Shown: positions 3,560 to 22,759, numbered from the stretch's first letter. The stretch: 22,759 bases of DNA from Chlamydiales bacterium (GCA_047611865.1 JBLFWS010000040.1:1-22759), one strand, 5' to 3'. Notes: generated by a model not told the origin, from the letters alone. Made by a program: numbers and translations.

Positions 3560-3814
3560 TTATGCTTGATCCTTTTCTAGGAGAAGGTTGTATATCCAGG
3601 CCAAGAAGAAAAAGAAGAAAAAACCGTCAGCAAAGCCATACAGAAGACCTAGGAAGCAGCCCCAAAGGGAAGCGTTGTATCCTGGGTAGATGTCTATGAT
3701 AATTTCTACAAGCTTTGGGGCATAGCCGAAAAAAGAGGAAAGCAGGGTGATTAGAAATAGAGACAGGCCAGAAAGAGTTCCACCAGCAATACCGAGTTTT
3801 ACTTTGTTCAACAT
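3560..3814 (-). CDS. Small two-TM membrane protein, resembling the widespread family often annotated 'bacteriophage holin'
   Basis: 84 aa with two hydrophobic helices and the motif IYPGY..S..G...GL.YGF.DGF......AW.YN. SD AGGAGA upstream. Its stop is 1 nt before the sdhA ATG. Confidence 0.75.
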   Translation of the reverse strand: MLNKVKLGIAGGTLSGLSLFLITLLSSFFGYAPKLVEIIIDIYPGYNASLWGCFLGLLYGFADGFFFFFFLAWIYNLLLEKDQA

Positions 3815-3837: not shown

Positions 3838-4836
3838 CTAATATTTTAAATTAATCCAGTATGTTCCCCAGACAGAAGCCAAGCCAAAAAAGGCGAGTAG
3901 ACCCATAAGTCCCGTTGTAATAGTTCTCATTGTTCGTTGAGACTGAGGCGTTACCGCAATTCCCCAGCTTATGAGGAAGGTCCAAAGGCCATTTGATGCA
4001 TGGAAGCAGGCCGAAAGAACAAAGATGGTGTATAATGCCAGCATGAGGGGATTTTTAAAAGTATCTCTTACAACGAGTAAGGTAGCCGTCCCAAAGCTAG
4101 AGGAGGTAGTGATTACTTCTCCTTCACTTATGGCTTTACTTTGAAGTACTCCAAGCCATTCCTTTTTCAGATTATATTCCTGGACTTCTTCAAGATATTC
4201 TTCTTTGTCAGGGTCGTAAAACGTCTTCTTCGGAATTTCCAATAAGTCAATGGCAAGGGTAGCTTCATCGACAGTACTAGTGGCTTCCAGCTTTTCTAGT
4301 GAAACTTGTTCTTCGTGAATTTTTTTTGCGTCAAATATTTGAAAATCAAGTCGTTCGCTGAGAGTGTAAAGACCATCATCCATAGAAACCAGGGTCATGT
4401 AGGTCGTATTGGCTCCGCTGCCACTATGCTCAGGGTAATTGATAAAGCGCATTTGAATGACATGGGCGAATATCCCTATAAGGAGAATCCATGAAGTGAT
4501 CCTCTGCCAGGTATACGCCTGGTTGCGGTGGTATTCTCCGAGGGCGGGAGTGCTGCCGTCCGAGGGGAAGCTATTGATGCTTCCAGTTCGTAAGTACTGG
4601 ACTCCCCAGATCATGTGAATGGCAAATGGAACTCCAAGCAAAAATGCTTCTATAAAGGGTAGGTATGGCAGGTCATGAATGGAATTTACCATTTTGATGA
4701 AACCGTAGCCATCCTGGCCTATCAGTAAAGCAGCTTGTGAGTTGGTCAACAAGTGCTCTAATAAGAACAAGACGAGAAACACACCCATGAGGGAGTGAAT
4801 TCTTCTCCATATAAATGACGTTGCTAGATTGCTCAT
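3838..4836 (-). CDS. sdhC: Succinate dehydrogenase cytochrome b558 subunit (single-subunit, di-haem, type B anchor)
   Basis: Four haem-ligand His motifs (RRIHSLMG, AIHMIWG, FAHVIQMR, CFHASNGLW), five TM segments, and position upstream of sdhA/sdhB. Confidence 0.92.
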   Translation of the reverse strand: MSNLATSFIWRRIHSLMGVFLVLFLLEHLLTNSQAALLIGQDGYGFIKMVNSIHDLPYLPFIEAFLLGVPFAIHMIWGVQYLRTGSINSFPSDGSTPALGEYHRNQAYTWQRITSWILLIGIFAHVIQMRFINYPEHSGSGANTTYMTLVSMDDGLYTLSERLDFQIFDAKKIHEEQVSLEKLEATSTVDEATLAIDLLEIPKKTFYDPDKEEYLEEVQEYNLKKEWLGVLQSKAISEGEVITTSSSFGTATLLVVRDTFKNPLMLALYTIFVLSACFHASNGLWTFLISWGIAVTPQSQRTMRTITTGLMGLLAFFGLASVWGTYWINLKY

Positions 4837-4959: not shown

Positions 4960-7900
4960 TTATTGCTTGCTTGTCCCAAAGGCCCCTGTGATTTTCTTGA
5001 CGTTATCAGTAGCTTGGAAAGCACCGGATGCTTCTTCAGCATTCGGACCATAGAAAGCTCCCGCAAAACCACTCGATGTACTTACCCCGTTATATGTTGT
5101 AGTTCCAGCAAAGTGATGAGTTCCGGAACCGATAGACCCGGTGAGGGAAATGTCTGAAATGTCAGTCCCTAAGTTTATAGAGCCTGTTAAGTTTCCGTTG
5201 CTGAAATCCACATCTAGAGAAGCCGATCCCAAGCGAAGATCACCGAAGGTATCTGTACCATCGAAGACACTGGCAATGGCTGCTCCCGAATAATGGGCTG
5301 TTGGGGTAGCTGATGCGACGTTGGTCATATTAGGGAGATTTGCAGTAGTATTGTCGCCTATGCCAAAGAATCCGAAAGCTCTTTTATTTGTGCTGGCACC
5401 TTTTGTTCCCCAGATTCCCCAGGAAATATATGTAAAACTATCTGTACCGGGTAGGCTTGATACCCAGGTATTGGGAATGTCTAAAGTTTCGGATGTGAAT
5501 GTTGAGCCAAATGATCCGGCATTATTACTTTCCGAGGATTGAAGGTTGGTGATGAAGGCTTCTTTACTGATAAAGGTGTTGATGTCGCTGCTTGAAGTTG
5601 TCAGGTTAAAAGAGGCTGAATTTGAAGAGTCTACTACAGAGACTGTGGCACTGGTACTGCCAAAGGAGCTAGCTATTACTAAATCCAGTGTGCTTAAGCC
5701 ACTCAGGAGGCTGACGGAGTTATTACTGTCGATACTCACACCCTTCATTGCCCCATGAAAACTTAAGGATGGTAAAACAGAGTAAGTTTCTGCCTGGGCT
5801 GCTAAACTAACACCATACTGGGCTTCGAGAGTGCTTGGTGATGACGTGTCCACATATTGTCTCTGAAACTCTAAGAACAAACTTTGGCCATTAGTACTTG
5901 CAAAACTTCCTGAAAATGATCCACTGCTATCAATGGATGTGGAGTACATTCCTCCACTTGTGACATTGGAGCCCTCTTTTGAGAGTACTGTGGTCCAGCC
6001 GCTGAATGTTTCGTTATTAACAATGGAACTCGTTTGGCCTTTGGTGATGACGATACTTCCGCTAGGGAGGAAAGTCATACCTGTAAGATAGTTATTGGTG
6101 AGGTTGGCAAGGTAGTAAGAGAAGCCGAAATCGGTGAATACCGGAGAGGTGCTTTGAGTACTTGTATGAGTATCTATACCGCTGTGGAGGCTGGCGCCCT
6201 TATAAAGCAGATAATTATTCGTTGATTGCACAGGGGATTTAATACCGGCTACCCAGAAGTTGTGCAGGCCGGGATAGATGCTATTATTTGGGTCGTCTTC
6301 CACAGCATTCCAGATTCCCCACATAACCCCTTGGGGAGAACTACTTTGCGAGTTTATTGTGACTTCGGGTGGATCTAGAGCGAAGATAAAACTGGCATCT
6401 TGTAAAATTTTGAAACTACTATCACTGGAACCCAATTCACTGAATAAATGATCGTGGTTTAAACCATAGCTATTCTCAATGCTGAGACTATTTGTGATTT
6501 GATTGTTATTACTATCTGTTCTTTTTAGGCTTAAGCTTCCACTAAGGCTTTTGTTAGCAAAGTCAGTCGTTAAAGTGATGTCATTTGTTATATGATCAAA
6601 CTCAAGAGCGCTTGTGCCTTTAATGTTTATACCGTGACCAAAGCCTGTATAAGTGGCATCTGCGTCTATGGTGATTGTTTCATTAGTTTGGTGGAATCCA
6701 GCAGAAGTGAAAAAGCCATCTGAACCGTCGCTTCCTTGCACACCTAGACCTTGTCCATCGCTACCATATATATGACCATTTCCAGAGAAAGTGTTTAATA
6801 GGGTGTCGTTGAGTATTAGTGTGTCGAAGTTGAAATCGGTAGTAGCGTCAGCATTATCGCCAATTACCAAGCTGGTGGTAGACGGTTGGTATCCTAGTGT
6901 GTTGTAGAGATGTACGCTTGAAATACTTCCATCGGTACCGAGGATACCCGTATAAATAAAGGCGGGAACTTTGATTTCATCAAACAGAATGGGGAGGCTA
7001 AAAGTACTTGTATTTGTAGTCGTACTAGTAGGAATACTGTCTGTTTCTTCTTGACCAAATTGAGCGAGGTCAAAATGGGTAAATGAAGCACCGATGACTT
7101 TCCCTTGATCAAAGTCGGCAATGGTTCCAGAATCAAAGCCTAGGCTAAATATGTTTGAACCCTTTGTAAGGAGAGCCCCTCGTACATCCTGGAAGATACC
7201 TGTCGAAAGAGTAGAGGAAAGATCATGAGAATCAGTGGTATACATACGAACCCCTGATAGGGGGATCTGTGATGCAGTGCTTTCTGAACCAAAAAAAAGT
7301 AATTCTTCTGTTCCTGTTGTTCCTACAATGCTTTCTCTATCTACAACGAAAAATTCGTTTAAATTATCGTACATTCTTTGAAAAAATTCTGTCCCGGAGG
7401 AGATTTCGTCTGAAATTGTTTGAGTATAGCTCGAACCACTAATGGTGGGTAAACTTTGCTCGAATAATTCACTGGAGCCTTCAAAGGTAATCTGTAATAT
7501 TCCAGAACCTTCCAGGCGATTTCCGAAAGTTTTTCCTCCTCCACTTGAGAAGACACCATCTGTAACGGCAACTCTGGCAAAATGACCGGTGTAATCGAAG
7601 AGGGAGCTCTCATCAGAGATAGCGGCATCTTGGGAGATGACCGTCTCACTATAGATAACATCAGAAGCTACGTCAGAAATATCTTGCACATCGGAAACAA
7701 TTTCAGTGGTGTCGGGTACGTAGATCTTAAAGTCTGTATCAGGAATGACGTCTTCAAAGCTGTAGTTTTCCAATGCGTCAATAGAAAATGCCTCTGCATA
7801 GGCTTCACTTTCATAAGAAAAATCGATTGTAGCGACAGGCTCATCGATCGACGTATCGTAGTCCATAAGTCCAAATTCATCTGTTTCTACGTCAAATTCA

Positions 7901-8994
7901 TTTGAGGCAAGGCTGTCTTCGTATTCTGGAACTTCACCAGCTGCATATGTACCCTCTTCCACATCTTGAGATTCATCATAAGTCGCTGTGTCTTCAAGCT
8001 TTCCTTCTTCTTCGACAAGGGGGGCCTCTTCTTCAGGTGCCTCTTCTTCGGTTTCAGGAAGGGACTGTTCATCACTCTCAGGTTCTTCATCTTCAAGAGC
8101 TTTCTCTTCAGCTAATGGTTCCTCATCTTCATTTTCTTCCGGCTCTTCTTCAGCTACCTGCTCCTCTTCCTCACGTTCTTCGTCCTCTTGCTCGTTTTGT
8201 TCACTAGAAGCTTCTTCTTCCTTCGCCTTTTCCTCAGCTCGATTTTTCTTTGCTTTATCGATACGTTTATTCTCTTCTACTGCGTATTTCTTTCCTGGAG
8301 ACTGAGTGAAAGTGACTTTGTTGACGGAACCTTTATCATTAATGGTAAAACCTTTACCAGAGCTTGTAACTAACCTTACTGGAGGGGCAGATGAACCGGG
8401 AGGGCGAGTTGTTGGAGCCATTGTGACAGCGTGTCCACCTTTTTTCATTAATTCCAATTTTTTAGGTCGTCCTGGAATTCGGCCATCAGAGGTGGATACT
8501 TCGGCAGAGGTTCCTCTGATACCTATAACAGCAGTTGCTGTCTCCAGCTTGAAGTTTTGTGGAGCGATCTTTCCAATTTTTCCGGCCATAAAGGTAAGTA
8601 GGCCATTGTTTACTTGGCCTGTGTAGTTAACGTCCCCATCGGGTCGGAATGAATAGGATTTTAACGTCAGATCACTGCTGCCATGTATACTGATTTTGGA
8701 TTGGTCCATAAAGGCGATTTGCATGAAAGCACCCAAGCCTGTGTCAATGCGATCACCCACTGATAGGAGGTCCTTTAGTTTGGCTAGCTTTTTTGTTCCA
8801 TCTTTTTTTCTTATAAGAGCTTTACCTTTGAGAGAAACGACGATTGCTATTTTTTCATCATTTTTAAAAGGGCCTTGCACTTTAGGGGCATAGGTAGGTT
8901 TAGCTTCTTCACCTTCGGAGGCCGTGGAAGGGAAGGCTCCAAATAAACAGCAGCTTAGGAAAAAGTGCAGAAAAAAGAGAGAGTACCTCTTCAT
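4960..8994 (-). CDS. Exported FecR-domain protein with acidic linker and C-terminal TbpB-like beta-barrel modules (paralogue A)
   Basis: N-terminal signal peptide MKRYSLFFLHFFLSCCLFG. FecR-like segment GDRIDTG...F.D.S.I...S.L....Y...F.L.T.TAVIGIRGT. Glu-rich linker, Ser/Thr/Gly-rich beta modules, and C-terminus FAGAFYGPNAEEASGAF...ITGAFG. Confidence 0.8.
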   Translation of the reverse strand: MKRYSLFFLHFFLSCCLFGAFPSTASEGEEAKPTYAPKVQGPFKNDEKIAIVVSLKGKALIRKKDGTKKLAKLKDLLSVGDRIDTGLGAFMQIAFMDQSKISIHGSSDLTLKSYSFRPDGDVNYTGQVNNGLLTFMAGKIGKIAPQNFKLETATAVIGIRGTSAEVSTSDGRIPGRPKKLELMKKGGHAVTMAPTTRPPGSSAPPVRLVTSSGKGFTINDKGSVNKVTFTQSPGKKYAVEENKRIDKAKKNRAEEKAKEEEASSEQNEQEDEEREEEEQVAEEEPEENEDEEPLAEEKALEDEEPESDEQSLPETEEEAPEEEAPLVEEEGKLEDTATYDESQDVEEGTYAAGEVPEYEDSLASNEFDVETDEFGLMDYDTSIDEPVATIDFSYESEAYAEAFSIDALENYSFEDVIPDTDFKIYVPDTTEIVSDVQDISDVASDVIYSETVISQDAAISDESSLFDYTGHFARVAVTDGVFSSGGGKTFGNRLEGSGILQITFEGSSELFEQSLPTISGSSYTQTISDEISSGTEFFQRMYDNLNEFFVVDRESIVGTTGTEELLFFGSESTASQIPLSGVRMYTTDSHDLSSTLSTGIFQDVRGALLTKGSNIFSLGFDSGTIADFDQGKVIGASFTHFDLAQFGQEETDSIPTSTTTNTSTFSLPILFDEIKVPAFIYTGILGTDGSISSVHLYNTLGYQPSTTSLVIGDNADATTDFNFDTLILNDTLLNTFSGNGHIYGSDGQGLGVQGSDGSDGFFTSAGFHQTNETITIDADATYTGFGHGINIKGTSALEFDHITNDITLTTDFANKSLSGSLSLKRTDSNNNQITNSLSIENSYGLNHDHLFSELGSSDSSFKILQDASFIFALDPPEVTINSQSSSPQGVMWGIWNAVEDDPNNSIYPGLHNFWVAGIKSPVQSTNNYLLYKGASLHSGIDTHTSTQSTSPVFTDFGFSYYLANLTNNYLTGMTFLPSGSIVITKGQTSSIVNNETFSGWTTVLSKEGSNVTSGGMYSTSIDSSGSFSGSFASTNGQSLFLEFQRQYVDTSSPSTLEAQYGVSLAAQAETYSVLPSLSFHGAMKGVSIDSNNSVSLLSGLSTLDLVIASSFGSTSATVSVVDSSNSASFNLTTSSSDINTFISKEAFITNLQSSESNNAGSFGSTFTSETLDIPNTWVSSLPGTDSFTYISWGIWGTKGASTNKRAFGFFGIGDNTTANLPNMTNVASATPTAHYSGAAIASVFDGTDTFGDLRLGSASLDVDFSNGNLTGSINLGTDISDISLTGSIGSGTHHFAGTTTYNGVSTSSGFAGAFYGPNAEEASGAFQATDNVKKITGAFGTSKQ

Positions 8995-9147: not shown

Positions 9148-12100
9148 TTACTTTGCGGCCCCAAAAGCACCAGTAATTTTAATGTTGCCGCCATCAAAGG
9201 CTTTGAATGAACCGGCAGCCTCTTCTGCTGCAGGCCCGTAAAATCTCCCGCTATAGCCATTTGTGACGGTATTACCACTGAAGGTAGTGTTACCGGAAAA
9301 GGCAGCGCTATTGATACTACTGCTGTTTAAACCAATGGTGTGGGAACCAAGAGAGATACTTCCAGTAACATTCCCAGCTCCGGAAAAGTCTACAGATAAG
9401 GTGGATGTTCCAGTAGCTGCAGTGGCTAAGGAACTCGAATCATTAAAAATTGCTCCAATGGAGGGGCCGTGATAAGTGAATACGGTGGACCCACTGGCTT
9501 GTATAGCTCCTATGTCTGGAATAAGTGAACTATCATTTCTGCCTGATCCAAAATATCCAAAGGCCGTGTGTGCAACCCCTGTTGTTTGCCATTGGCCCCA
9601 GCTTATGTACTGAAAATTTTCTAGTCCGGGTAGGCTTTGAATATAAGAGATATTTGAGTCTATTGTGCTAGACGGAAATGCACTCCCGATGCTTACAGGG
9701 CTTAACGCTGCTGTATGTTCTACCTTTGAAAAAAAATGGTCTTTATCGATAAAAGTATTTTGGTTTTCTAGATCATCATGATGTAAGAAGCTTTTGCTTA
9801 GAGTAATAAGGGAATAATCAGCTGCCGGAGCTGCGTTATCAAATGTCACATGTCCAAAAATGCGATTGTTAGAAGCTTTGATATCGAATGTAGAAGAACT
9901 ATTGTCTAGTAAGCTGATGCCGGAGGAAGAAGCAACGATTCCATTTAGATCACCATGGAGGCTTTCTGAGGAGAATTTCCCGACATTCTTACCTGCCAGA
10001 GCACCAGTAATAACTGTTGAGTTGTCGGAAGCCGAAAATGTGCCAATTCCTTCATCGACTAAGGAGCCAATGAAATCGATAGAAAAAGTTTTCTCATTAC
10101 GGACCCCATTCAGTGTTGTGGATCCCTCAAAACGTGTGATACTTTGGAAGCTGCCGTTGAGATCAACCAGAAGGTCATCTCCATATAAGACGCTTCCATA
10201 CAAAATTCCGTTGGAGAAATTGACATCTAAGCTGCTACTTCCGAAGCGAATGACACCGTTTGGATTTTGGGCATCAAAAACGCTCGCGATAGAGGGGCCA
10301 CTAAAGTGGTAAACGGATGTGCCTGAGTTTCCTGCATTGGTCAAATTAGCGGCGACATTGAAATCGATAACTTCACAAAATCCGAGGTATCCAAAAGCGC
10401 GATTTTCATTTATAATTCCTTTTGCTCCCCACTTGCCCCAGCTAACGTATTTATAATCTTCCAGGCCCGGCATAGCGACTATGTAACTATTAGTTGGGTC
10501 AAGTAGATCTAATGGGAAATCAGGGCCAAAGGATACGGGGGCTATCGATGGAGGACTTCCCAAAGCACCGATAGTAGATGTAATAAAAGCGTCTTTACTG
10601 ATGAAGGCGTTTATACCTGAGTTAAGGTTTGCACCGAGTATTTGTGTCGAGACTTGAAGAAAGTTGTCATTGATGGTAATGGCTGCAGTAAAGTCTAATT
10701 CATTTTGACTATTATCGAGGGTGGTGGATCCGAATATACCTAGATCAGCTCCAGAGCTTCCTCCTTGTATGGTTTTTATAGAGCCGCTATTTGAAAAAAT
10801 CAGTCCTTCTATAGTGCCCGGGTAAATAGCTTCGGTAAGGACTGGTGTTTCTTTGACTCTCGTAGCGACTCCTACTCCAAACTGAGAGTTAACGGCGGAA
10901 GTATTATTGAGGCTCCTGCTAAATTCATAGCTCAAGCTTTCTCCGGAAGTAGAGGCGAAAATTCCGTTTAATGTTCCAAGGTCATCAAAAGAAGCACTAA
11001 ATAATCCGTTGGCAGCATTGTTACCGTTAGTGGAAAATCCAGCGAGTTGGCCGGTGTAAGTATTGTCATCGTGGGTACCCCTGAAGACTTGAATGTCTCC
11101 TGAAGAAAAAAAGCTTAATCCCAGCATTTTCCCGTTATTACGGTCTACTAAATATTTCGAGATACCAAAGTCGGAAGCGGCCTCAGATTTCGTGGAGGTG
11201 CTATTGTAAACTGCGGTTCGAATAGAAGAGCCTGTATAATGTAACATGGGATTACTGGAGGATAACTTTTGAGCTATTCCGGCACTCCAGAAGTTGTGCA
11301 TACCAGGATAGAAATTCTTAATATTTCCGCCGGCAGACTCTTCTTCTACCACGTTCCACATCCCCCACATAACCCCTGTAGGCTTAGAGAATTCTCGGCT
11401 TGTTGGATTAAGTATGGAGGGCAATTCAAAGCTGCTAAGAAAGCTGGCATCTGGATTGCTGACAAAGCTTTCCTCTCCGGAAAGTTCACTAAAAAGGTTT
11501 TGATTGTCTATTGCTGTACTATGTCTGGAAGCAGAAATGGTTTTCGTATTGTTATCATTTCCTGTGAAGTTAAGGAAGCCAGTAAGAGAAGATAGAGAAA
11601 AAGAGGGGGACAGTTCCATTTCACCTTGAACATGAGATAAGCTTAAGCTTTCTGGAGAAACCTGTAGTCCTTGTGTATGACCGATATATTTGCCTTCGGT
11701 ACTTGATAACTTGACTTTGGTCTTATTAAGGAAAGAAGCTCCTGCAAAATAACCTCCTCCTAAGTCATCAGCCTGAACACCGATCCCTTGGGCTTCAGAG
11801 CCAAAAAGTTGGCCATTTCCAGAGTAACTTGTGAGTAGTTTGTTATCGAAAATTAAAGATTTTGGATCTGCGGTAGCACTTAAAGTGGGAGGAGTCGCTA
11901 CAAAGCCTAGAGTATTGTAGAGGTGTAGTTGAGTGATGGAACCATCAACTTCAAGCTGCCCGTTGTAGTACACTGAAGGGAGGCTAGCTTGAAACAGGAG
12001 AGGCGCTTTGCTTGAATTTACTTGATTCGTTGAATCGTCTTTATAGAGGAAGTTTCCAGCAAATGTTCCTAAGTTATTTCCATAGGAGCTTCCACTAATT

Positions 12101-13860
12101 TTATTATGAGTAAAATCGACTGTAGCATTGTTAGAAAAGGCAGCATTTAAGAAATTTCTATTCTTAACGAGTATAGATTCTCTAAGAAGGGGGAAGTCTT
12201 CTACAGAGCTATGAGAGTTAGGTGTATTGAGGTTCGTTTCTCCTTTAATGAGTAGAGAATCCGCATGGCCGTTGGGGGTGTTTTGGGAACTGTAAAAACG
12301 GACTCCAGAGCTGGGGATATTTGCTGAAACAGCATTTGTGACGTTTTCAGGAAAGGGGATTGTTGAGTTGATGGAGGCTTTCCCAAAGAAAAGAAGTTCG
12401 TCAATCTTTTCTGAAGGGTCATTGATCACATGGTTGATGATGAAAAACTCGTTCAGATTATCGTAAATTCTTTTGAATGAACGGGCCCCTTCTGTCACTG
12501 TATCGGCTATAACTTGTTGGTATGTAGTTGCTGTGGGTGTAGGAAGCGTAAAGTTGAGGTTTGTTTTTGACTTGAGTATATTGATAAGAAGTTTTTGTGT
12601 GTCCGAATATACTTGGGGTAAAATCCTGCTGGCGAAGCTATTTACGAAGTCATTGTTAGAATGTAAACCCGTAAGAAATCCTGAATAGTCTCCAGAAGAT
12701 CTTGTAAGTCCTCCAAGCTTTTTCTCATTTGACTGAGCTGTTTCATTAAAGATTATAGTGGAGGCTTTTTCTTTCAAATTATCAATTTCTTGGGATATCA
12801 AATAATTGTCGGTGATATGAGGAGCCTTTTTGAAGGCTTTAGCGAACTTTTTGATCGATTTAAAAGGAAATCTTTTAACATCGAATTCTATTCTGTCAGC
12901 TTCGATGATACTTTCCTCTTCCATAAGGGAGACCGTATTTTGGTCCTTACTTATGAGGGAAGTCTTTTCCGTATCTTGTTCATTTGAATCGGCTTTTTCT
13001 ACAAGCAGGGTATTTCTTTGGACTTCTGCAATGCGTGTGTTTTCTTGCACAGCATATTTTTCACCCGGTGACGTGGAAAAGAACGCAGTATCCATTTCTC
13101 CAGTAGGGCCGATGATAAATCCCGTGCCTGAATTTGAAACCACAAGGACTGGTGGGCCTTCATATTCTCCGCGGAAGGCGGGCTCTAATGTAATTCCTAT
13201 TCCACCTTTTTTCATTATTTCCATCATGGAGGGGCGACCAGGAAGAGTTCCATCTGATGTCAAAATCTCTCCAGAAGATCCTTCAATTCCTACTACTCCC
13301 TGACTGGTTTTGATGTGGAATTTGTGTGGGGCATGTTTTCCAATTTCTCCTGCCATAAATGACATGAGGCCATTTTTCATTTGGGCGACATATTCCATGT
13401 TCCCTTTAGGAGTATATTCATAGGCTTCGACAGTTAAATCGCTGCTTCCATGAAGACTGAATTTTGAATGATCGATAAACTCGACTTGAATGAAAGCTCC
13501 AAGACCGGTGTCGATTCGATCTCCAACAGAAATAGCCGTTTTGTGGCGTATGCTTTCTCTCGTTCCATCGGCTTTAGTTAAGATGCTCAAACCCTTGTTT
13601 GATATGACTATTCCGACTTGTTTGGACTCTTTGATTTTCACTGGTAGTATTGGAGTTGCAACGTAATCTTTGGAAATATGTTGAGCAGACAGACCAGATA
13701 TCATCAAGGAACTTATGATTAGTATAAAAACAAAGAGTCGCCAGGGGCTATACACAAACTTAGATAAGTAGCTGGAGTTTCCAGGTAGGTCTAGATGTGG
13801 AAAAATCGGGCCAAAAACCGATTTTTGGAGTTGTTTGTGCATAAGCATTAAGGTCCCCAT
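9148..13860 (-). CDS. Exported FecR-domain protein with C-terminal TbpB-like beta-barrel modules (paralogue B)
   Basis: Collinear with paralogue A: SVGDRIDTGLGAF, MKKGG, YDNLNEFF, LYNTLG, GVMWG.WN, YPG.HNFW.AGI, FYGP.AEEA.G.F...ITGAFG. The hydrophobic signal-like segment ends at LSA|Q (aa ~59), so the true start may be the GTG at 13755. Confidence 0.8.
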   Translation of the reverse strand: MGTLMLMHKQLQKSVFGPIFPHLDLPGNSSYLSKFVYSPWRLFVFILIISSLMISGLSAQHISKDYVATPILPVKIKESKQVGIVISNKGLSILTKADGTRESIRHKTAISVGDRIDTGLGAFIQVEFIDHSKFSLHGSSDLTVEAYEYTPKGNMEYVAQMKNGLMSFMAGEIGKHAPHKFHIKTSQGVVGIEGSSGEILTSDGTLPGRPSMMEIMKKGGIGITLEPAFRGEYEGPPVLVVSNSGTGFIIGPTGEMDTAFFSTSPGEKYAVQENTRIAEVQRNTLLVEKADSNEQDTEKTSLISKDQNTVSLMEEESIIEADRIEFDVKRFPFKSIKKFAKAFKKAPHITDNYLISQEIDNLKEKASTIIFNETAQSNEKKLGGLTRSSGDYSGFLTGLHSNNDFVNSFASRILPQVYSDTQKLLINILKSKTNLNFTLPTPTATTYQQVIADTVTEGARSFKRIYDNLNEFFIINHVINDPSEKIDELLFFGKASINSTIPFPENVTNAVSANIPSSGVRFYSSQNTPNGHADSLLIKGETNLNTPNSHSSVEDFPLLRESILVKNRNFLNAAFSNNATVDFTHNKISGSSYGNNLGTFAGNFLYKDDSTNQVNSSKAPLLFQASLPSVYYNGQLEVDGSITQLHLYNTLGFVATPPTLSATADPKSLIFDNKLLTSYSGNGQLFGSEAQGIGVQADDLGGGYFAGASFLNKTKVKLSSTEGKYIGHTQGLQVSPESLSLSHVQGEMELSPSFSLSSLTGFLNFTGNDNNTKTISASRHSTAIDNQNLFSELSGEESFVSNPDASFLSSFELPSILNPTSREFSKPTGVMWGMWNVVEEESAGGNIKNFYPGMHNFWSAGIAQKLSSSNPMLHYTGSSIRTAVYNSTSTKSEAASDFGISKYLVDRNNGKMLGLSFFSSGDIQVFRGTHDDNTYTGQLAGFSTNGNNAANGLFSASFDDLGTLNGIFASTSGESLSYEFSRSLNNTSAVNSQFGVGVATRVKETPVLTEAIYPGTIEGLIFSNSGSIKTIQGGSSGADLGIFGSTTLDNSQNELDFTAAITINDNFLQVSTQILGANLNSGINAFISKDAFITSTIGALGSPPSIAPVSFGPDFPLDLLDPTNSYIVAMPGLEDYKYVSWGKWGAKGIINENRAFGYLGFCEVIDFNVAANLTNAGNSGTSVYHFSGPSIASVFDAQNPNGVIRFGSSSLDVNFSNGILYGSVLYGDDLLVDLNGSFQSITRFEGSTTLNGVRNEKTFSIDFIGSLVDEGIGTFSASDNSTVITGALAGKNVGKFSSESLHGDLNGIVASSSGISLLDNSSSTFDIKASNNRIFGHVTFDNAAPAADYSLITLSKSFLHHDDLENQNTFIDKDHFFSKVEHTAALSPVSIGSAFPSSTIDSNISYIQSLPGLENFQYISWGQWQTTGVAHTAFGYFGSGRNDSSLIPDIGAIQASGSTVFTYHGPSIGAIFNDSSSLATAATGTSTLSVDFSGAGNVTGSISLGSHTIGLNSSSINSAAFSGNTTFSGNTVTNGYSGRFYGPAAEEAAGSFKAFDGGNIKITGAFGAAK

Positions 13861-18603: not shown

Positions 18604-21186
18604 ATGGAAAAGTCATTAATTATCGTAGAGTCACCAGCGAAAATCAAAACTCTACAAAAATTTCTCGGGCCGAACTTTGTGTTTGAGTCTTCTGTGGGTC
18701 ACATACGCGACCTCCCTCAAAAAGGCTTTGGCATCGATGTAGAAAATAATTTTGAACCTGAGTACGAGGTACTTCCAGATAAAAAACAGGTTATCCAAAA
18801 AATTATCGCCGCAGCTAAAGAATGTAGCACCGTTTATCTTTCTCCTGACCCCGACCGCGAGGGAGAGGCCATTGCTTGGCATATAGCCTCAATTTTACCT
18901 GAGGGTACAAACATTAAACGCGCAACTTTCAACTCTATTACGAAAGAAGCAGTGATTAAGGCTTTGGATAACCCAAGAGATATTGATTATTCCCTGGTAA
19001 ATGCCCAACAGGCTCGGAGACTTCTTGATAGAATTGTGGGATATAAAATATCCCCTATACTCGCCCGACGCATCCAAAGAGGGAAAAGAGCTCCTGGTGA
19101 GGGTTCCCTTTCTGCCGGAAGAGTACAGTCGGTAGCTTTGAAGCTCGTCGTTGACAGAGAAAAAGAAATTGATGAGTTTAATCCAGTAGAGTATTGGAAT
19201 GTCGTAGCGACACTCAACAATAAGGAAAGTCAACGCGACTTTTCAGCGTATTTATACTCTGTAGAAGGTAAGCGTGTAGAAAAAGAGCCTGTCGAAGGGA
19301 AAGAAGTATATATTGTTGGAGACAAAGATACCGCAGATAATATTCTCGATAGAATTAAGCAGTCAGACTTTGTCGTTACTAAGGTTGACAGAAAGGAAAA
19401 ACGACGAAACCCTGTTCCACCATTTATTACTTCGACTATTCAACAAGAAGCTAGCCGCCATTACGGTTTTTCATCCGCAAAAACAATGACTATTGCTCAG
19501 GGCCTTTATGAAGGGGTTGATATGGGCACCGAGGGAATGGAGGGTTTAATTACCTACATGAGAACCGACTCTGTGCGTGTTGCCCCAGAAGCCATAACTG
19601 AACTTCGTGAGTATATAGTAGCTCAATTTGGACAAGAGTTTTGTCCAGAATCTCCTCGTTCTTTTTCTTCAAAAAAAACAGCTCAAGATGCTCACGAAGC
19701 TATCAGACCAACAAATATGGAGCACCCTCCTGAGAAGGTCAAAGAATTTTTAAGTATAGATCATTTTCGCCTTTACTCACTAATCTGGAAGCGATTTGTT
19801 GCCTCACAGATGAATCCTGCAGTATACGATACTGTTTCCGCGGATGTTTCCTCTGATGAAGTTGTTTTAAGAGCTACTGGGTCAATATTGAAGTTTCAGG
19901 GCTTTTTGGCGGTCTACGAAGAGAAGGCAGATGATGATGAAGAGGAAGGGAAAGATAAGGATCTCCCAGAGCTCGAAGAAGGGCAAGTGCCCTTACTTCA
20001 GGATGTTACTGCGGATCAGTCTTTTACTCGTCCCCCTCCCCGCTATTCGGAAGCTTCTCTGGTTAAAGAACTGGAAAAGTCAGGTATAGGGCGTCCATCC
20101 ACTTACGCTACCATTATGAATAAGATCCAGAGTAGGGAGTATACGGTTAAAGAAAATCGGCGCTTGAAACCTACTGAACTGGGTCAAGTTATTGCCCAAA
20201 TGCTTGAAACGAGCTTTAAGCAAATTATGGATATTGGTTTCACAGCTAAGATGGAAGATGATCTGGAACAGGTTGCTGAAGATCATAAGGATTGGAGAGA
20301 GCTGATCAGTGATTTTTGGAAGGAGTTTATCCCAACTGTAGAAATCGCAGAAAAAGAAGCATTTGTTCCAAAAATCCTCACCGATATTGACTGTCCAAGC
20401 TGTGGAACTAAGCTGCAGAAGATATGGGCCCGGAATAAGTACTTTTATGGATGTTCAGGTTACCCCGATTGTAATTACACGACGACAGAAGAAGAGCTGA
20501 ATTTTAACAAAGGGGACTATGACGAAAAGTTCAATTGGGATCAGCTTTGTCCTATCTGTACTAAAGAGATGAAGGTTCGTCATGGCCGTTTTGGCTGCTT
20601 TCTTGGTTGTGCTACTTATCCTGATTGTAAGGGTATCATCAATATACCTAAGGTGGGAGAAGAGGTTATTCCTGTTGATCAGCTTCCTCCTTGTCCAGCT
20701 TTAGATTGTCCTGGAAAAATCATTCCTAAAAAATCGCGTTTTGGCAAAACATTTTATTCTTGCTCTACGTTTCCTGAGTGTAATGTGATCGTTAACGAAA
20801 TTGAAGAGTTGGATGTAAAATATCAAGCCTATCCAAGAACTCCTTATGTGAAAAAGGTTCGTGGCAAAAAAGGTGCTGCTGAAGCTGATGCAAAAGGCAA
20901 AGGGAAGAAGACAAAGGCTCGGAAGCCTCGCGGTCCGAGTACAATGTCTCCGAGTCCTCTTTCACCTGAGCTACAGGCATTAGTAGGAGTCCCTGAGATG
21001 CAACGCACACAGGTGATCAAGCAAGTGTGGGTCTATATCAAAGATAAGGGCCTTCAAGATCCCAAGGATAAGCGTATTATAATGCCTGACGAAAAGTTGG
21101 GTGCTGTGTTGGGAACAACAGAGCCTATTAATATGTTTAAGCTAACAGGAGCGATCAGTAAACACATAATGAAAGTCGCGAAGTAA
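18604..21186 (+). CDS. topA: DNA topoisomerase I with zinc ribbons and C-terminal SWIB domain
   Basis: IVESPAK toprim start, DPDREGE, SAGRVQS, catalytic GLITYMRTDS, GIGRPST, three Cys4 zinc ribbons, Lys-rich linker, then SWIB LSPELQALVG...RTQVIKQVWVYIK..GLQDPKDKR.I.PDEKL. Confidence 0.97.
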   Translation: MEKSLIIVESPAKIKTLQKFLGPNFVFESSVGHIRDLPQKGFGIDVENNFEPEYEVLPDKKQVIQKIIAAAKECSTVYLSPDPDREGEAIAWHIASILPEGTNIKRATFNSITKEAVIKALDNPRDIDYSLVNAQQARRLLDRIVGYKISPILARRIQRGKRAPGEGSLSAGRVQSVALKLVVDREKEIDEFNPVEYWNVVATLNNKESQRDFSAYLYSVEGKRVEKEPVEGKEVYIVGDKDTADNILDRIKQSDFVVTKVDRKEKRRNPVPPFITSTIQQEASRHYGFSSAKTMTIAQGLYEGVDMGTEGMEGLITYMRTDSVRVAPEAITELREYIVAQFGQEFCPESPRSFSSKKTAQDAHEAIRPTNMEHPPEKVKEFLSIDHFRLYSLIWKRFVASQMNPAVYDTVSADVSSDEVVLRATGSILKFQGFLAVYEEKADDDEEEGKDKDLPELEEGQVPLLQDVTADQSFTRPPPRYSEASLVKELEKSGIGRPSTYATIMNKIQSREYTVKENRRLKPTELGQVIAQMLETSFKQIMDIGFTAKMEDDLEQVAEDHKDWRELISDFWKEFIPTVEIAEKEAFVPKILTDIDCPSCGTKLQKIWARNKYFYGCSGYPDCNYTTTEEELNFNKGDYDEKFNWDQLCPICTKEMKVRHGRFGCFLGCATYPDCKGIINIPKVGEEVIPVDQLPPCPALDCPGKIIPKKSRFGKTFYSCSTFPECNVIVNEIEELDVKYQAYPRTPYVKKVRGKKGAAEADAKGKGKKTKARKPRGPSTMSPSPLSPELQALVGVPEMQRTQVIKQVWVYIKDKGLQDPKDKRIIMPDEKLGAVLGTTEPINMFKLTGAISKHIMKVAK

Positions 21187-21208
21187 TTCAACATTGATAG
21201 AATTTAAC

Positions 21209-21265
21209 AGCATCATCTTCCATTTATAGTAGAATAGATAAATGGCAGATGATGCTTTGTTTTTT
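21209..21265 (+). terminator. Rho-independent terminator of topA
   Basis: AGCATCATCTTCCATTTAT-N10-ATAAATGGCAGATGATGCT (18/19 paired), followed by TTGTTTTTT. Confidence 0.8.
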
Positions 21266-21292
21266 CATCCTGCTCATTCCTGATGTATCAAT

Positions 21293-21319
21293 TAGGGCGT
21301 GTTTTGAAAACAGGCCTTA
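21293..21319. repeat. 27-bp mini-palindrome resembling two fused terminal repeats
   Basis: TA-GGGCGTGTTTT-G-AAAACAGGCCT-TA. It resembles the left end of the adjacent element (TAGGTCGTGTTTTCAAA) and shares its TA. Confidence 0.5.
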
Positions 21320-22222
21320 GGTCGTGTTTTCAAATTAGGGAATGTCTGATTTTATGATATTTTGCTGTATAGGCAAAGCACCATGAGGAGCAAAGTTCCG
21401 TTACAGTAATAGCCTGGTCCGAAGTGAGCCCTTGGCGAGCGCAGGGCTAGGAATAATCCCACACGTAATTATAAGCACTGAACGTGCGACACAAAAAGAC
21501 TTCGTTACGTTTTGTGTCGCACGTTCAGTGTATATGCGTAAAGCTAAGGAATAAGTGGTTGTAAGAGAAAGGTTAAGATAGATAATCCTTACCCTCGAAG
21601 TGGGTTACAGAAGGTAGCCCAGTGTAAGTGCGAGGGAGCTTGCGACCGAGACACGCAGCTCTGGGTATCTGAATAGACAAAATCATCACCCTTGAAAAGG
21701 GTGATGGAAATGCTAAAATACCTAATGAGCTTAAGGAATTTCCAGCACCCTTTTCGAGGGTGCACAATTAAATTCGCATATACCCAGAGCTACGTGTCTC
21801 GGTCGCAGGCTCCCTCGCACTTGCACTGGGCTATCTTCTATAACCCACTTCGTGGGTATCCTTGCTTACACTTTTTATTTACGAATTCTTTGCGCTAAAA
21901 TGTAAAATCACTTTGTTTTTAGCAAAACAAATCGCTGCAGATTTAAGTTATTATTTTATTCAAACAGCTCCCTTATATTTACTTACAACCTTAGCTTTAC
22001 GCATATGCACTTTCAGTGCTCAAAATTTCTAAGCTTATCCTTTCCTAGCCCTGCGTTCGCCAAGGGCTCACTTCGGACCAGGCTATTGGTGCGGCGGAAC
22101 TTTGTTCCTCATGGTGCTTTGCCTACGCGACAAAACAGATAAGTAGGTGAGTTATGACCAATCCCAAATCAAAACAAAATGCCCCCAAAATCAGACATTC
22201 CCTAATTTTAATACACGACCTA
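21318..22222. mobile_element. ~905-bp non-autonomous, MITE-like element made of five nested inverted-repeat pairs
   Basis: IR1 21318-21353/22187-22222 (34/36). IR2 21370-21453/22042-22125 (77/84). IR3 21474-21565/21982-22020 (gapped). IR4 21590-21668/21780-21858 (73/79). IR5 21687-21711/21738-21762 (23/25). TA at both outer ends and no transposase ORF. The repeat structure is directly seen; mobility is inferred. Confidence 0.65.
21476..21530. repeat. Perfect 21-bp local hairpin with a 13-nt loop
   Basis: CACTGAACGTGCGACACAAAA-agacttcgttacg-TTTTGTGTCGCACGTTCAGTG. Confidence 0.9.
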
Positions 22223-22759
22223 GCACATCGTAACTTCTATATCTTGATATTTTCTCATTAAGTCCCGAAAGCGGGCAGCGTCTTCAAAGCGGAATTCTTT
22301 TGCAGCTTTTTTCATCGCTGTTTCGTAGCCTTCGATGCGCTTTGAAACTTCATTAGGAGTTAAATATTCGTGTTCTGCTTCGAGTGGGGTGGGTTCTTCA
22401 ATTAGGGACTTTTGATCAGAGTTGTTAGAGGCTTTCTTGGCTTCAAGAGATAGTCCCAGTTCTCGCTTTGTGGATGTTGGAGTAATGCTGTGTTCTTTAT
22501 TATATTCTTCTTGAAGTTTCCTTCTCGACAAGGTGATGTCTACTGTTTTTTGGATAGAATCTGTCATTTTGTCAGCATACATAATGACTCGGCCTTCAAC
22601 ATTTCGAGCTGCACGTCCACAAGTTTGAATAAGAGCCGTATGACTGCGCAAAAAACCTTCCTTATCAGCATCTAAAATGGCAACTAGCGATACTTCTGGA
22701 ATATCGAGACCTTCCCTCAATAAGTTAATACCAACAAGAACATCGAATACACCTCGTCT
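22220..22759 (-). CDS. uvrB: Excinuclease ABC subunit B, C-terminal part; 5'-truncated by the window edge
   Basis: Frame open to the window end: [46 protein letters not shown], and the C-terminal UVR coiled-coil [18 protein letters not shown]. Confidence 0.97.

Follow-up and report, generated by a model that had tools for sequence, protein, structure and literature searches.

In this study, we analysed a 22,759-nt stretch of DNA from a Chlamydiales bacterium (GCA_047611865.1 JBLFWS010000040.1:1-22759; hereafter the window) and found a compound palindrome of five concentric inverted-repeat pairs in its last 1.5 kb, between the convergent genes topA-SWIB (+) and uvrB (-). The palindrome is real and non-coding. 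The best explanation, which we hold tentatively and with slightly less than even confidence, is that palindromic insertions resembling transposable elements of the miniature inverted-repeat type (MITEs) or hairpin-forming doublets (REPINs) of repetitive extragenic palindromes (REPs) entered one inside another and decayed in place. The layers would have been mobile, and the order of events proposed below is read back from their arrangement. We infer no selected cellular function for the palindrome.

An inverted-repeat search recovered, in place, all five pairs that a preliminary description of this DNA had reported; they are designated A to E from the outside inwards (Table 1). GC-rich blocks (50-60%) alternate with AT-rich spacers (25-35%). 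The blocks had been described as different sequences, which has to be given up for two pairs of layers. B and C are one block, and D and E are not all unrelated because the outer end of D and E have in common a 15-nt hairpin motif, ACCCnnGAAnnGGGT. The complementarity between arms is 88-96%. The motif has four copies in the palindrome, with 0.2 expected, and none in the rest of the window (including the other 10 intergenic spacers) or in 80 other loci collected by the TopA-based scan described below. The left arm carries a local hairpin, at the position of which the right arm has just a 13-nt mini-hairpin, GCACTGAAAGTGC (- strand reading), a difference of 44 nt. The left C-D spacer (21550-21590, 35-41 nt) is not homologous to the right spacer at 21864-21988. 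No other inverted repeats of at least 22 nt within 2 kb were found in the rest of the window, and the corresponding loci of three chlamydial relatives held only short, weak inverted repeats, with nothing comparable downstream of topA.

The region 21300-22240 was folded on both strands. The minimum free energy of the RNA was -521.4 kcal/mol (+) and -511.3 kcal/mol (-), compared to averages of -238 and -251 kcal/mol for shuffled sequences (z = -33 and -34), and none of 20 shuffles was as stable on either strand. Within 21318-22222, RNA parameters gave 288 inter-arm pairs and DNA parameters gave 262; the preliminary description had put the paired positions of one giant rod at about 260. When the arms were folded alone, z was -8.4 for the left arm and -1.7 for the right arm. 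The score of the left arm is due to its private hairpin (21471-21535), and the structure is therefore essentially inter-arm.

The insertion footprints were then investigated using a scan of 203 position pairs whose inner ten bases were at least 9/10 complementary, each checked for abutting direct repeats. ATCCTT (6 bp) was the sole non-palindromic direct repeat of at least 4 nt among the 203 pairs, with 0.06 expected for repeats of at least 6 nt. The other matches were self-complementary tetranucleotides within blocks, or a shorter TCCT overlapping ATCCTT at a neighbouring pair. The ATCCTT pair, which directly encloses the D-to-D' core, looks like a target-site duplication. Since these inner flanks are direct repeats and a pure inverted duplication predicts inverted ones, the core is read as a discrete element that duplicated 6 bp. 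The outer layers are without a decisive footprint because TA is self-complementary and two of the four possible bases would restore a stop codon. A' ends in CTA, which on the - strand reads TAG, the stop codon of uvrB; without 21320-22222, uvrB would end ...E V T M C TAA. Both the A core and the B core start with TAGG. Just outside the left end, 21292-21311 and 21317-21336 are alike at 16 of 20 positions (hand count), and the dyad GCGTGTTTTGAAAACAGGC lies at 21297-21315 with 11-bp arms; a self-complementary stretch at 21303-21334 also appeared in blastn.

To compare the arms, the left arm was aligned, with gaps, to the reverse complement of the right arm, and the spacers were tested against 500 shuffles. 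The B-C spacer was homologous between the arms, as 1 of 500 shuffles scored as well. Because this intervening patch is significantly alike, B and C form a single homologous block, broken by a more diverged patch and by the 44-nt hairpin of the left arm only. The remaining spacers were no more alike than shuffles, of which 380 (A-B), 75/270 (C-D) and 440 (D-E) of 500 scored as well. A partial match of the left C-D spacer to the right one was also considered, and rejected as 75 of 500 shuffles scored as well. The D-E spacers are nearly equal in length (15 and 14 nt) and unlike, so indels cannot account for their difference. Thus, the earlier claim of unrelated spacers stands for three of the four, A-B, C-D and D-E, and fails for B-C. 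Unrelated spacers between blocks that are 88-96% complementary fit terminal repeats around unrelated interiors; they would not be expected of a duplication that decays evenly.

Arm divergence was 2/36, 7/83, 1/23, 7/82 and 2/25 from layer A to layer E, or 19/249 overall (chi-square p = 0.95). Of the 19 mismatches in the 249 block positions, 13 were transitions, and G stood opposite T in 10 cases on the + strand and 3 on the - strand (binomial p = 0.09). At 4-fold degenerate sites over the window (1-22759), the coding-strand GC skew was -0.03 for + genes and -0.50 for - genes, so that the + strand is enriched in G and T. Such a skew is the usual signature of a leading strand, which implies that the + strand is the leading strand here. 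The 10:3 excess of G:U-compatible mismatches is explained by this regional strand skew, and we rejected it as evidence for an RNA. As the mismatches carry the local strand bias, the arms appear to have diverged in place, and selection on an RNA is not indicated.

Nested insertion would account for these observations in three steps. In the native state, topA and uvrB would have been separated by a convergent spacer of about 130 bp containing topA's own terminator. An outer element of about 630 bp (A plus B-C, both starting TAGG) would first have landed at a TA overlapping the uvrB stop codon, beside a short dyad. A 267-bp, almost fully palindromic element bearing four ACCCnnGAAnnGGGT hairpin copies would then have entered the outer element at its unpaired, AT-rich centre, duplicating ATCCTT (6 bp). 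The arms would finally have drifted to about 92% identity under local strand mutation bias, and one arm would have gained or lost the 44-nt hairpin. A chromosome without the whole unit would be expected to read ...GGCCTTA|GCACATCG... at the junction, and one without the inner element, with a single ATCCTT, ...GATAATCCTT|GCTTAC.... Sequences for matching to transposase ends are TAGGTCGTG... and ACCCTCGAAG.... Nested insertion explains why ATCCTT is repeated directly, why spacers are unrelated, why the unit ends in TA and lies at a gene end by a dyad, and why the intergenic spacer is outsized. The nested-insertion alternative of the preliminary description is supported for the inner layer, by ATCCTT and by three of four spacers being unlike. 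Five separate insertions are not shown, given that B-C is one block, that A and B have no unambiguous duplication and that divergence is equal.

Several further results weigh against this explanation. The footprint scan gave no unambiguous target duplication for layers A and B. The uniform divergence of the layers, in a test of low power, is more simply explained by a single duplication. The sizes of 267 and about 630 bp exceed the <200 bp given in parts of PMC2229807 as typical of bacterial MITEs, and the REP tags GTAG and CGTC do not stand at the hairpins. None of the 12 open reading frames (ORFs) of the window has a transposase or recombinase domain. No second copy of any layer was seen in the material searched, and multiple copies are a defining trait of MITEs and REPs. 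A blastn search with 21280-22240 against the other 21.8 kb of the window returned only self and arm-to-arm matches, and plasmid and phage collections gave no match to the palindrome. A TopA-alignment scan of a genome collection with very general patterns returned at least 80 loci (1.34 Mb in all), three of them chlamydial with 68, 59 and 57% identity, and the palindrome had no match at E <= 1 in those 80 loci. The D/E core was also used as a degenerate DNA probe, in two stop-free frames, against GTDB species genomes. This gave 169 pattern matches, of which 0 were confirmed, and the source locus itself was not returned. The source genome is therefore evidently not in that collection, or is masked there, and the result is no negative on copy number within the genome. 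A search for predicted proteins from other copies yielded no candidate for frames 21677-21898 (+) and 21906-22142 (+). For frame 21573-21767 (-), compared with 1.84 billion representatives, two marginal matches (E ~2e-4) to proteins of 545 and 2103 residues were set aside; the 545-residue match aligned in 7 stretches. The sole 100% match to TopA is named as a protein of a Chlamydiales metagenome-assembled genome (MAG) and the next best has 74% identity, so no close relative is known.

A local inverted duplication is an alternative to nested insertion. In this case, about 400 bp of one arm would have been copied in inverted orientation by a fold-back or template switch, for which the central hairpin may have been the seed. 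Putative gene conversion between the arms would then have kept the GC-rich blocks alike, and indels would have scrambled the AT-rich stretches, which escaped it. It would account for the equal divergence of all five blocks (19/249, p = 0.95 for heterogeneity), for their strictly collinear order and orientation, for the homology of B and C as one stretch with a hairpin indel, and for mismatches whose local strand bias indicates that they arose in place. In E. coli, palindromes are reported to give rise to inverted duplications with the palindrome at the centre (PMC3315005, in parts), and the lack of other copies in the window, the GTDB D/E scan and the 80 loci agrees with such an origin. However, the D-E (15 vs 14 nt), A-B and C-D spacers are unlike, and a divergence of about 4% per arm cannot erase homology, nor do indels explain unrelated spacers of near-equal length. 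The model also predicts inverted inner flanks, whereas the ATCCTT copies are direct. We therefore consider a local duplication unlikely, although it carries real weight. Another candidate is a non-palindromic dispersed repeat of about 270-400 bp, covering A-B-C with or without D-E, of which two independent copies happen to lie head to head. It would yield arms that diverge by about 8% and by indels, like members of one repeat family, and spacers that differ between copies. Against this, neither arm has its own terminal repeats or flanking duplications, the right arm is barely structured when folded alone (z = -1.7), the mismatch bias suggests divergence in place, and no third copy was found in the window or the 80 loci; facing copies are very unlikely. 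Since the TopA protein is named as MAG-derived, we also considered that the assembly of a short-read metagenome bin might have gone wrong here, by a hairpin path or by a misjoin through a repeat. An identical TopA is also recorded on a 5297-bp contig of another source, which would fit an assembly break near the palindrome. Hairpin contigs of this kind are exact reverse complements, whereas here we observed 19/249 mismatches, several indels and unrelated spacers. The right side also runs on into a different, intact gene with its stop codon abutting the repeat, and the centre (E-loop-E', 76 nt) should be short enough for single reads. An artefact is thus highly unlikely.

The preliminary description had offered a selected long hairpin as an alternative to nested insertion. 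Such a hairpin, of RNA or of extruded or single-stranded DNA, could act as double-stranded RNA (dsRNA), as a bidirectional barrier separating the convergent genes or as a topological element beside topA. The extreme fold (z about -33), the conserved helices with unrelated loops, the 10 (+) versus 3 G:U-compatible mismatches and a promoter-like site at the centre (21692-21719 (+), 10/12 positions) are consistent with it. However, the 10:3 bias falls short of significance (p = 0.09) and is in line with the excess of G and T on the + strand at 4-fold sites. Promoter-like sites numbered 5 with 3.3 expected, which is no enrichment, and the central one was the best. The whole window had 0 matches in Rfam 15 at gathering score. 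An E-value scan of 21100-22400 (E <= 1) returned three sub-threshold eukaryotic models, two microRNA precursors and one snoRNA, which we discarded as generic hairpin matches. No known RNA or protein family was matched in Rfam or in protein searches with the three stop-free frames. In addition, topA has a terminator before the palindrome and the uvrB strand has a terminator-like E hairpin before the left arm, and therefore neither mRNA is expected to contain both arms. The latter site is a consensus match only, found in a scan that gave 1 site with 1.0 expected. The right arm and centre probably form a long structured uvrB 3' untranslated region ending at the E hairpin and its T-run, as a by-product; the transcript ends are those predicted from these hairpins. 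The downstream regions of topA in the three chlamydial relatives had nothing comparable. The selected hairpin thus gained no support, since no Rfam family matched, the G:U excess is skew and terminators split the arms, and we consider it improbable. A bolder view is a long shot, namely that the 905-bp rod is kept by selection as dsRNA or as an extrudable cruciform by topA, serving as a barrier or sensor where the two transcription units converge, or that it belongs to the first palindrome-targeting mobile family of Chlamydiota. In a selected rod, the blocks would have to stay helical, with the unrelated spacers as free internal loops; in the milder version, a palindrome-targeting family would nest concentrically into hairpin tips.

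The domain calls on both flanks confirmed that the palindrome lies between convergent topA and uvrB, as first described. The topA-uvrB spacer is 1033 nt long, whereas the window's other 10 intergenic spacers measure between 1 and 284 nt; without the palindrome unit it would be about 130 nt and topA's own terminator would be retained. No ORF of at least 80 aa lies inside the intergenic palindrome, and the sole such ORFs overlapping 21150-22300 are topA and uvrB. No gene for a REP-associated tyrosine transposase (RAYT, IS200/IS605-like) was found in the window, and no tRNA or tmRNA was found. Inverted repeats are present as in an invertible DNA switch, but a recombinase domain is absent from the 12 window ORFs. 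The consensus terminator scan did not catch the topA terminator at 21209-21256, and we attribute the miss to the 3-8 nt loop range of the scan. At the three chlamydial relatives' loci, uvrB was not within 10 kb of topA, and dprA upstream of topA was kept only in the third (L003 of L001-L003). These results indicate that the adjacency of topA and uvrB is not conserved across families.

Table 1. Coordinates of the compound palindrome, its parts and its flanks in the window
Feature	Coordinates	Strand	Description	Basis
Whole compound palindrome	21318-22222		905 bp; TA at both ends (21318-21319, 22221-22222)	Inverted-repeat search, arm alignment, folding
A / A'	21318-21353 / 22187-22222		Outermost arms, 36 nt, 34/36 (94%), 2 mismatches; A starts TAGG	Inverted-repeat search
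B / B'	21360-21453 / 22042-22135		Arms, 94 nt, 83/94 (88%), 11 mismatches	Inverted-repeat search
B core	from 21370/21371		76/83, 7 mismatches of 83; starts TAGG	
Local hairpin	21471-21535		26 bp, left arm only	Inverted-repeat search, arm alignment
C / C'	21527-21549 / 21989-22011		Arms, 23 nt, 22/23 (96%); homology contiguous with B	Inverted-repeat search
ATCCTT, left copy	21585-21590		Putative target-site duplication	Footprint scan
Inner palindromic element	21591-21857		267 bp, ACCC...GGGT; D, spacer, E, loop, E', spacer, D'	Repeats, alignment, footprint scan
D / D'	21590-21671 / 21777-21858		Arms, 82 nt, 75/82 (91%)	Inverted-repeat search
E / E'	21687-21711 / 21738-21762		Arms, 25 nt, 23/25 (92%); 26-nt loop 21712-21737	Inverted-repeat search
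E-loop-E'	21687-21762		Inverted doublet of small GC-rich hairpin	Inverted-repeat and motif search
Terminator-like site	21706 to 21684	-	Left E hairpin and tail ATTTTGTCTA	Consensus scan
ATCCTT, right copy	21858-21863			Footprint scan
Right spacer	21864-21988		AT-rich, unpaired, ~125 nt, between inner element and C'	Spacer shuffle test, composition
Partial direct copy of A terminus and dyad	21292-21315		Just outside left end	Sequence inspection
topA terminator hairpin	21209-21256	+	19-bp stem (95%), 10-nt loop, then T-run TTTGTTTTTT; outside palindrome	Inverted-repeat search
topA with C-terminal SWIB domain	18604-21186	+	Flank; Toprim, Topoisom_bac, three zinc ribbons, SWIB	
uvrB 3' part	22220-22759	-	Flank; C-terminal 179 codons, runs off window	Domain and ORF calls

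Elsewhere in the window, an 84-aa ORF (3560-3814, -) lies between the genes for the succinate dehydrogenase flavoprotein and the cytochrome-b-like subunit, a position at which a membrane-anchor subunit is expected. It matched the NCBIfam model 'bacteriophage holin holin_4' at 71.3 bits (cut-off 70) and had no Pfam match. The neighbouring sdhC-like protein (3838-4836, -; 332 aa) matched two succinate dehydrogenase cytochrome-b models in separate parts, the b558-family model at residues 7-135 and the b556 cytochrome-b subunit model at residues 246-317, which suggests, as far as the two model matches go, that the membrane anchor is fused or duplicated. Next come two giant genes in tandem, paralog-like, at 4960-8994 (-) and 9148-13860 (-), encoding 1344 and 1570 aa. 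Both combine an N-terminal FecR domain with a C-terminal beta-barrel like that of TbpB_B_D or Slam-dependent lipoproteins, an unusual pairing for a chlamydia-like genome.

If the layers are mobile, the palindrome would document MITE/REPIN-like palindromic elements for Chlamydiota. It would also exemplify elements that enter each other's unpaired centres, very long palindromes arising in this way within a compact genome. Such a case would inform the question of how long palindromes, a hazard in E. coli, are tolerated by bacteria. The preliminary description knew of no described element of this architecture in Chlamydiae. We found none in the titles and abstract openings retrieved by text searches on Chlamydiae or Parachlamydia with MITE or repeat terms. 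If single-copy, it would be a natural large, old, interrupted palindrome surviving in a bacterial chromosome; the compound palindrome is probably old. For annotation, the palindrome is a gene-free stretch of 0.9 kb in which no hypothetical proteins should be called, and it may break short-read assemblies.

The palindrome was compared with known systems. Parts of PMC2229807 describe bacterial MITEs as having terminal inverted repeats, TA termini, target duplications and long stem-loop folds, with YPAL targets in or beside dyad symmetry. Like ERIC/IRU, YPAL/RU-2, Correia/NEMIS and RUP as presented there, the palindrome is non-coding and intergenic with terminal inverted repeats, and it shares with them TA outer termini, an inner target duplication, a dyad-adjacent site at a gene end and predicted hairpin transcripts. 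It differs in size, its elements of 267 bp and about 630 bp (905 bp when nested) being larger than the about 100-200 bp given for MITEs (PMC2229807, in parts), and its repeats span nearly the whole length. Terminal inverted repeats are present in A (34/36) and D (75/82), and a target duplication in the inner 267-bp element only. In contrast to MITEs, no second copy or partner transposase is shown here.

The likeness to REPs, REPINs and bacterial interspersed mosaic elements (BIMEs) lies in the E-loop-E' doublet, an inverted pair of a short GC-rich hairpin with a spacer between, as sections of PMC3733652, PMC3116915 and PMC3337134 describe for those elements. E and E' are 25 nt each around a 26-nt loop, and each carries ACCCnnGAAnnGGGT. 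REP transposition is not known to make 6-bp duplications. The ACCCnnGAAnnGGGT hairpin is found again at the inner element's ends, and parts of PMC3733652 document concentric palindromes inside palindromes for REPs, with REP dimers regularly inserted inside larger palindromes. Of the REP tags given there, CGTC/GACG occurs 0 times in 21318-22222 and GTAG/CTAC 4 times, none adjoining the four hairpins. High copy number was not seen in the window either, with all 4 ACCCnnGAAnnGGGT matches inside the palindrome and 0 in the other 10 spacers. Eukaryotic nested MITEs and foldback transposons have elements inside elements, and long modular inverted arms that form most of the unit. They belong to another domain of life with other transposases, whereas one locus is involved here; the part of the 'nested MITE' literature covered concerned only plants and fungi.

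Palindrome-centred inverted duplications and SbcCD-sensitive palindromes of E. coli, as reported in parts of PMC3315005 and PMC4787754, are alike in their long inverted repeats and short asymmetric centre. The interruptions and the central spacer should make such a long palindrome tolerable. Those E. coli palindromes are experimental constructs or large rearrangements with contiguous homologous arms (PMC3315005 and PMC4787754, in parts), whereas the palindrome described here has unrelated spacers and one layer with a direct-repeat footprint.

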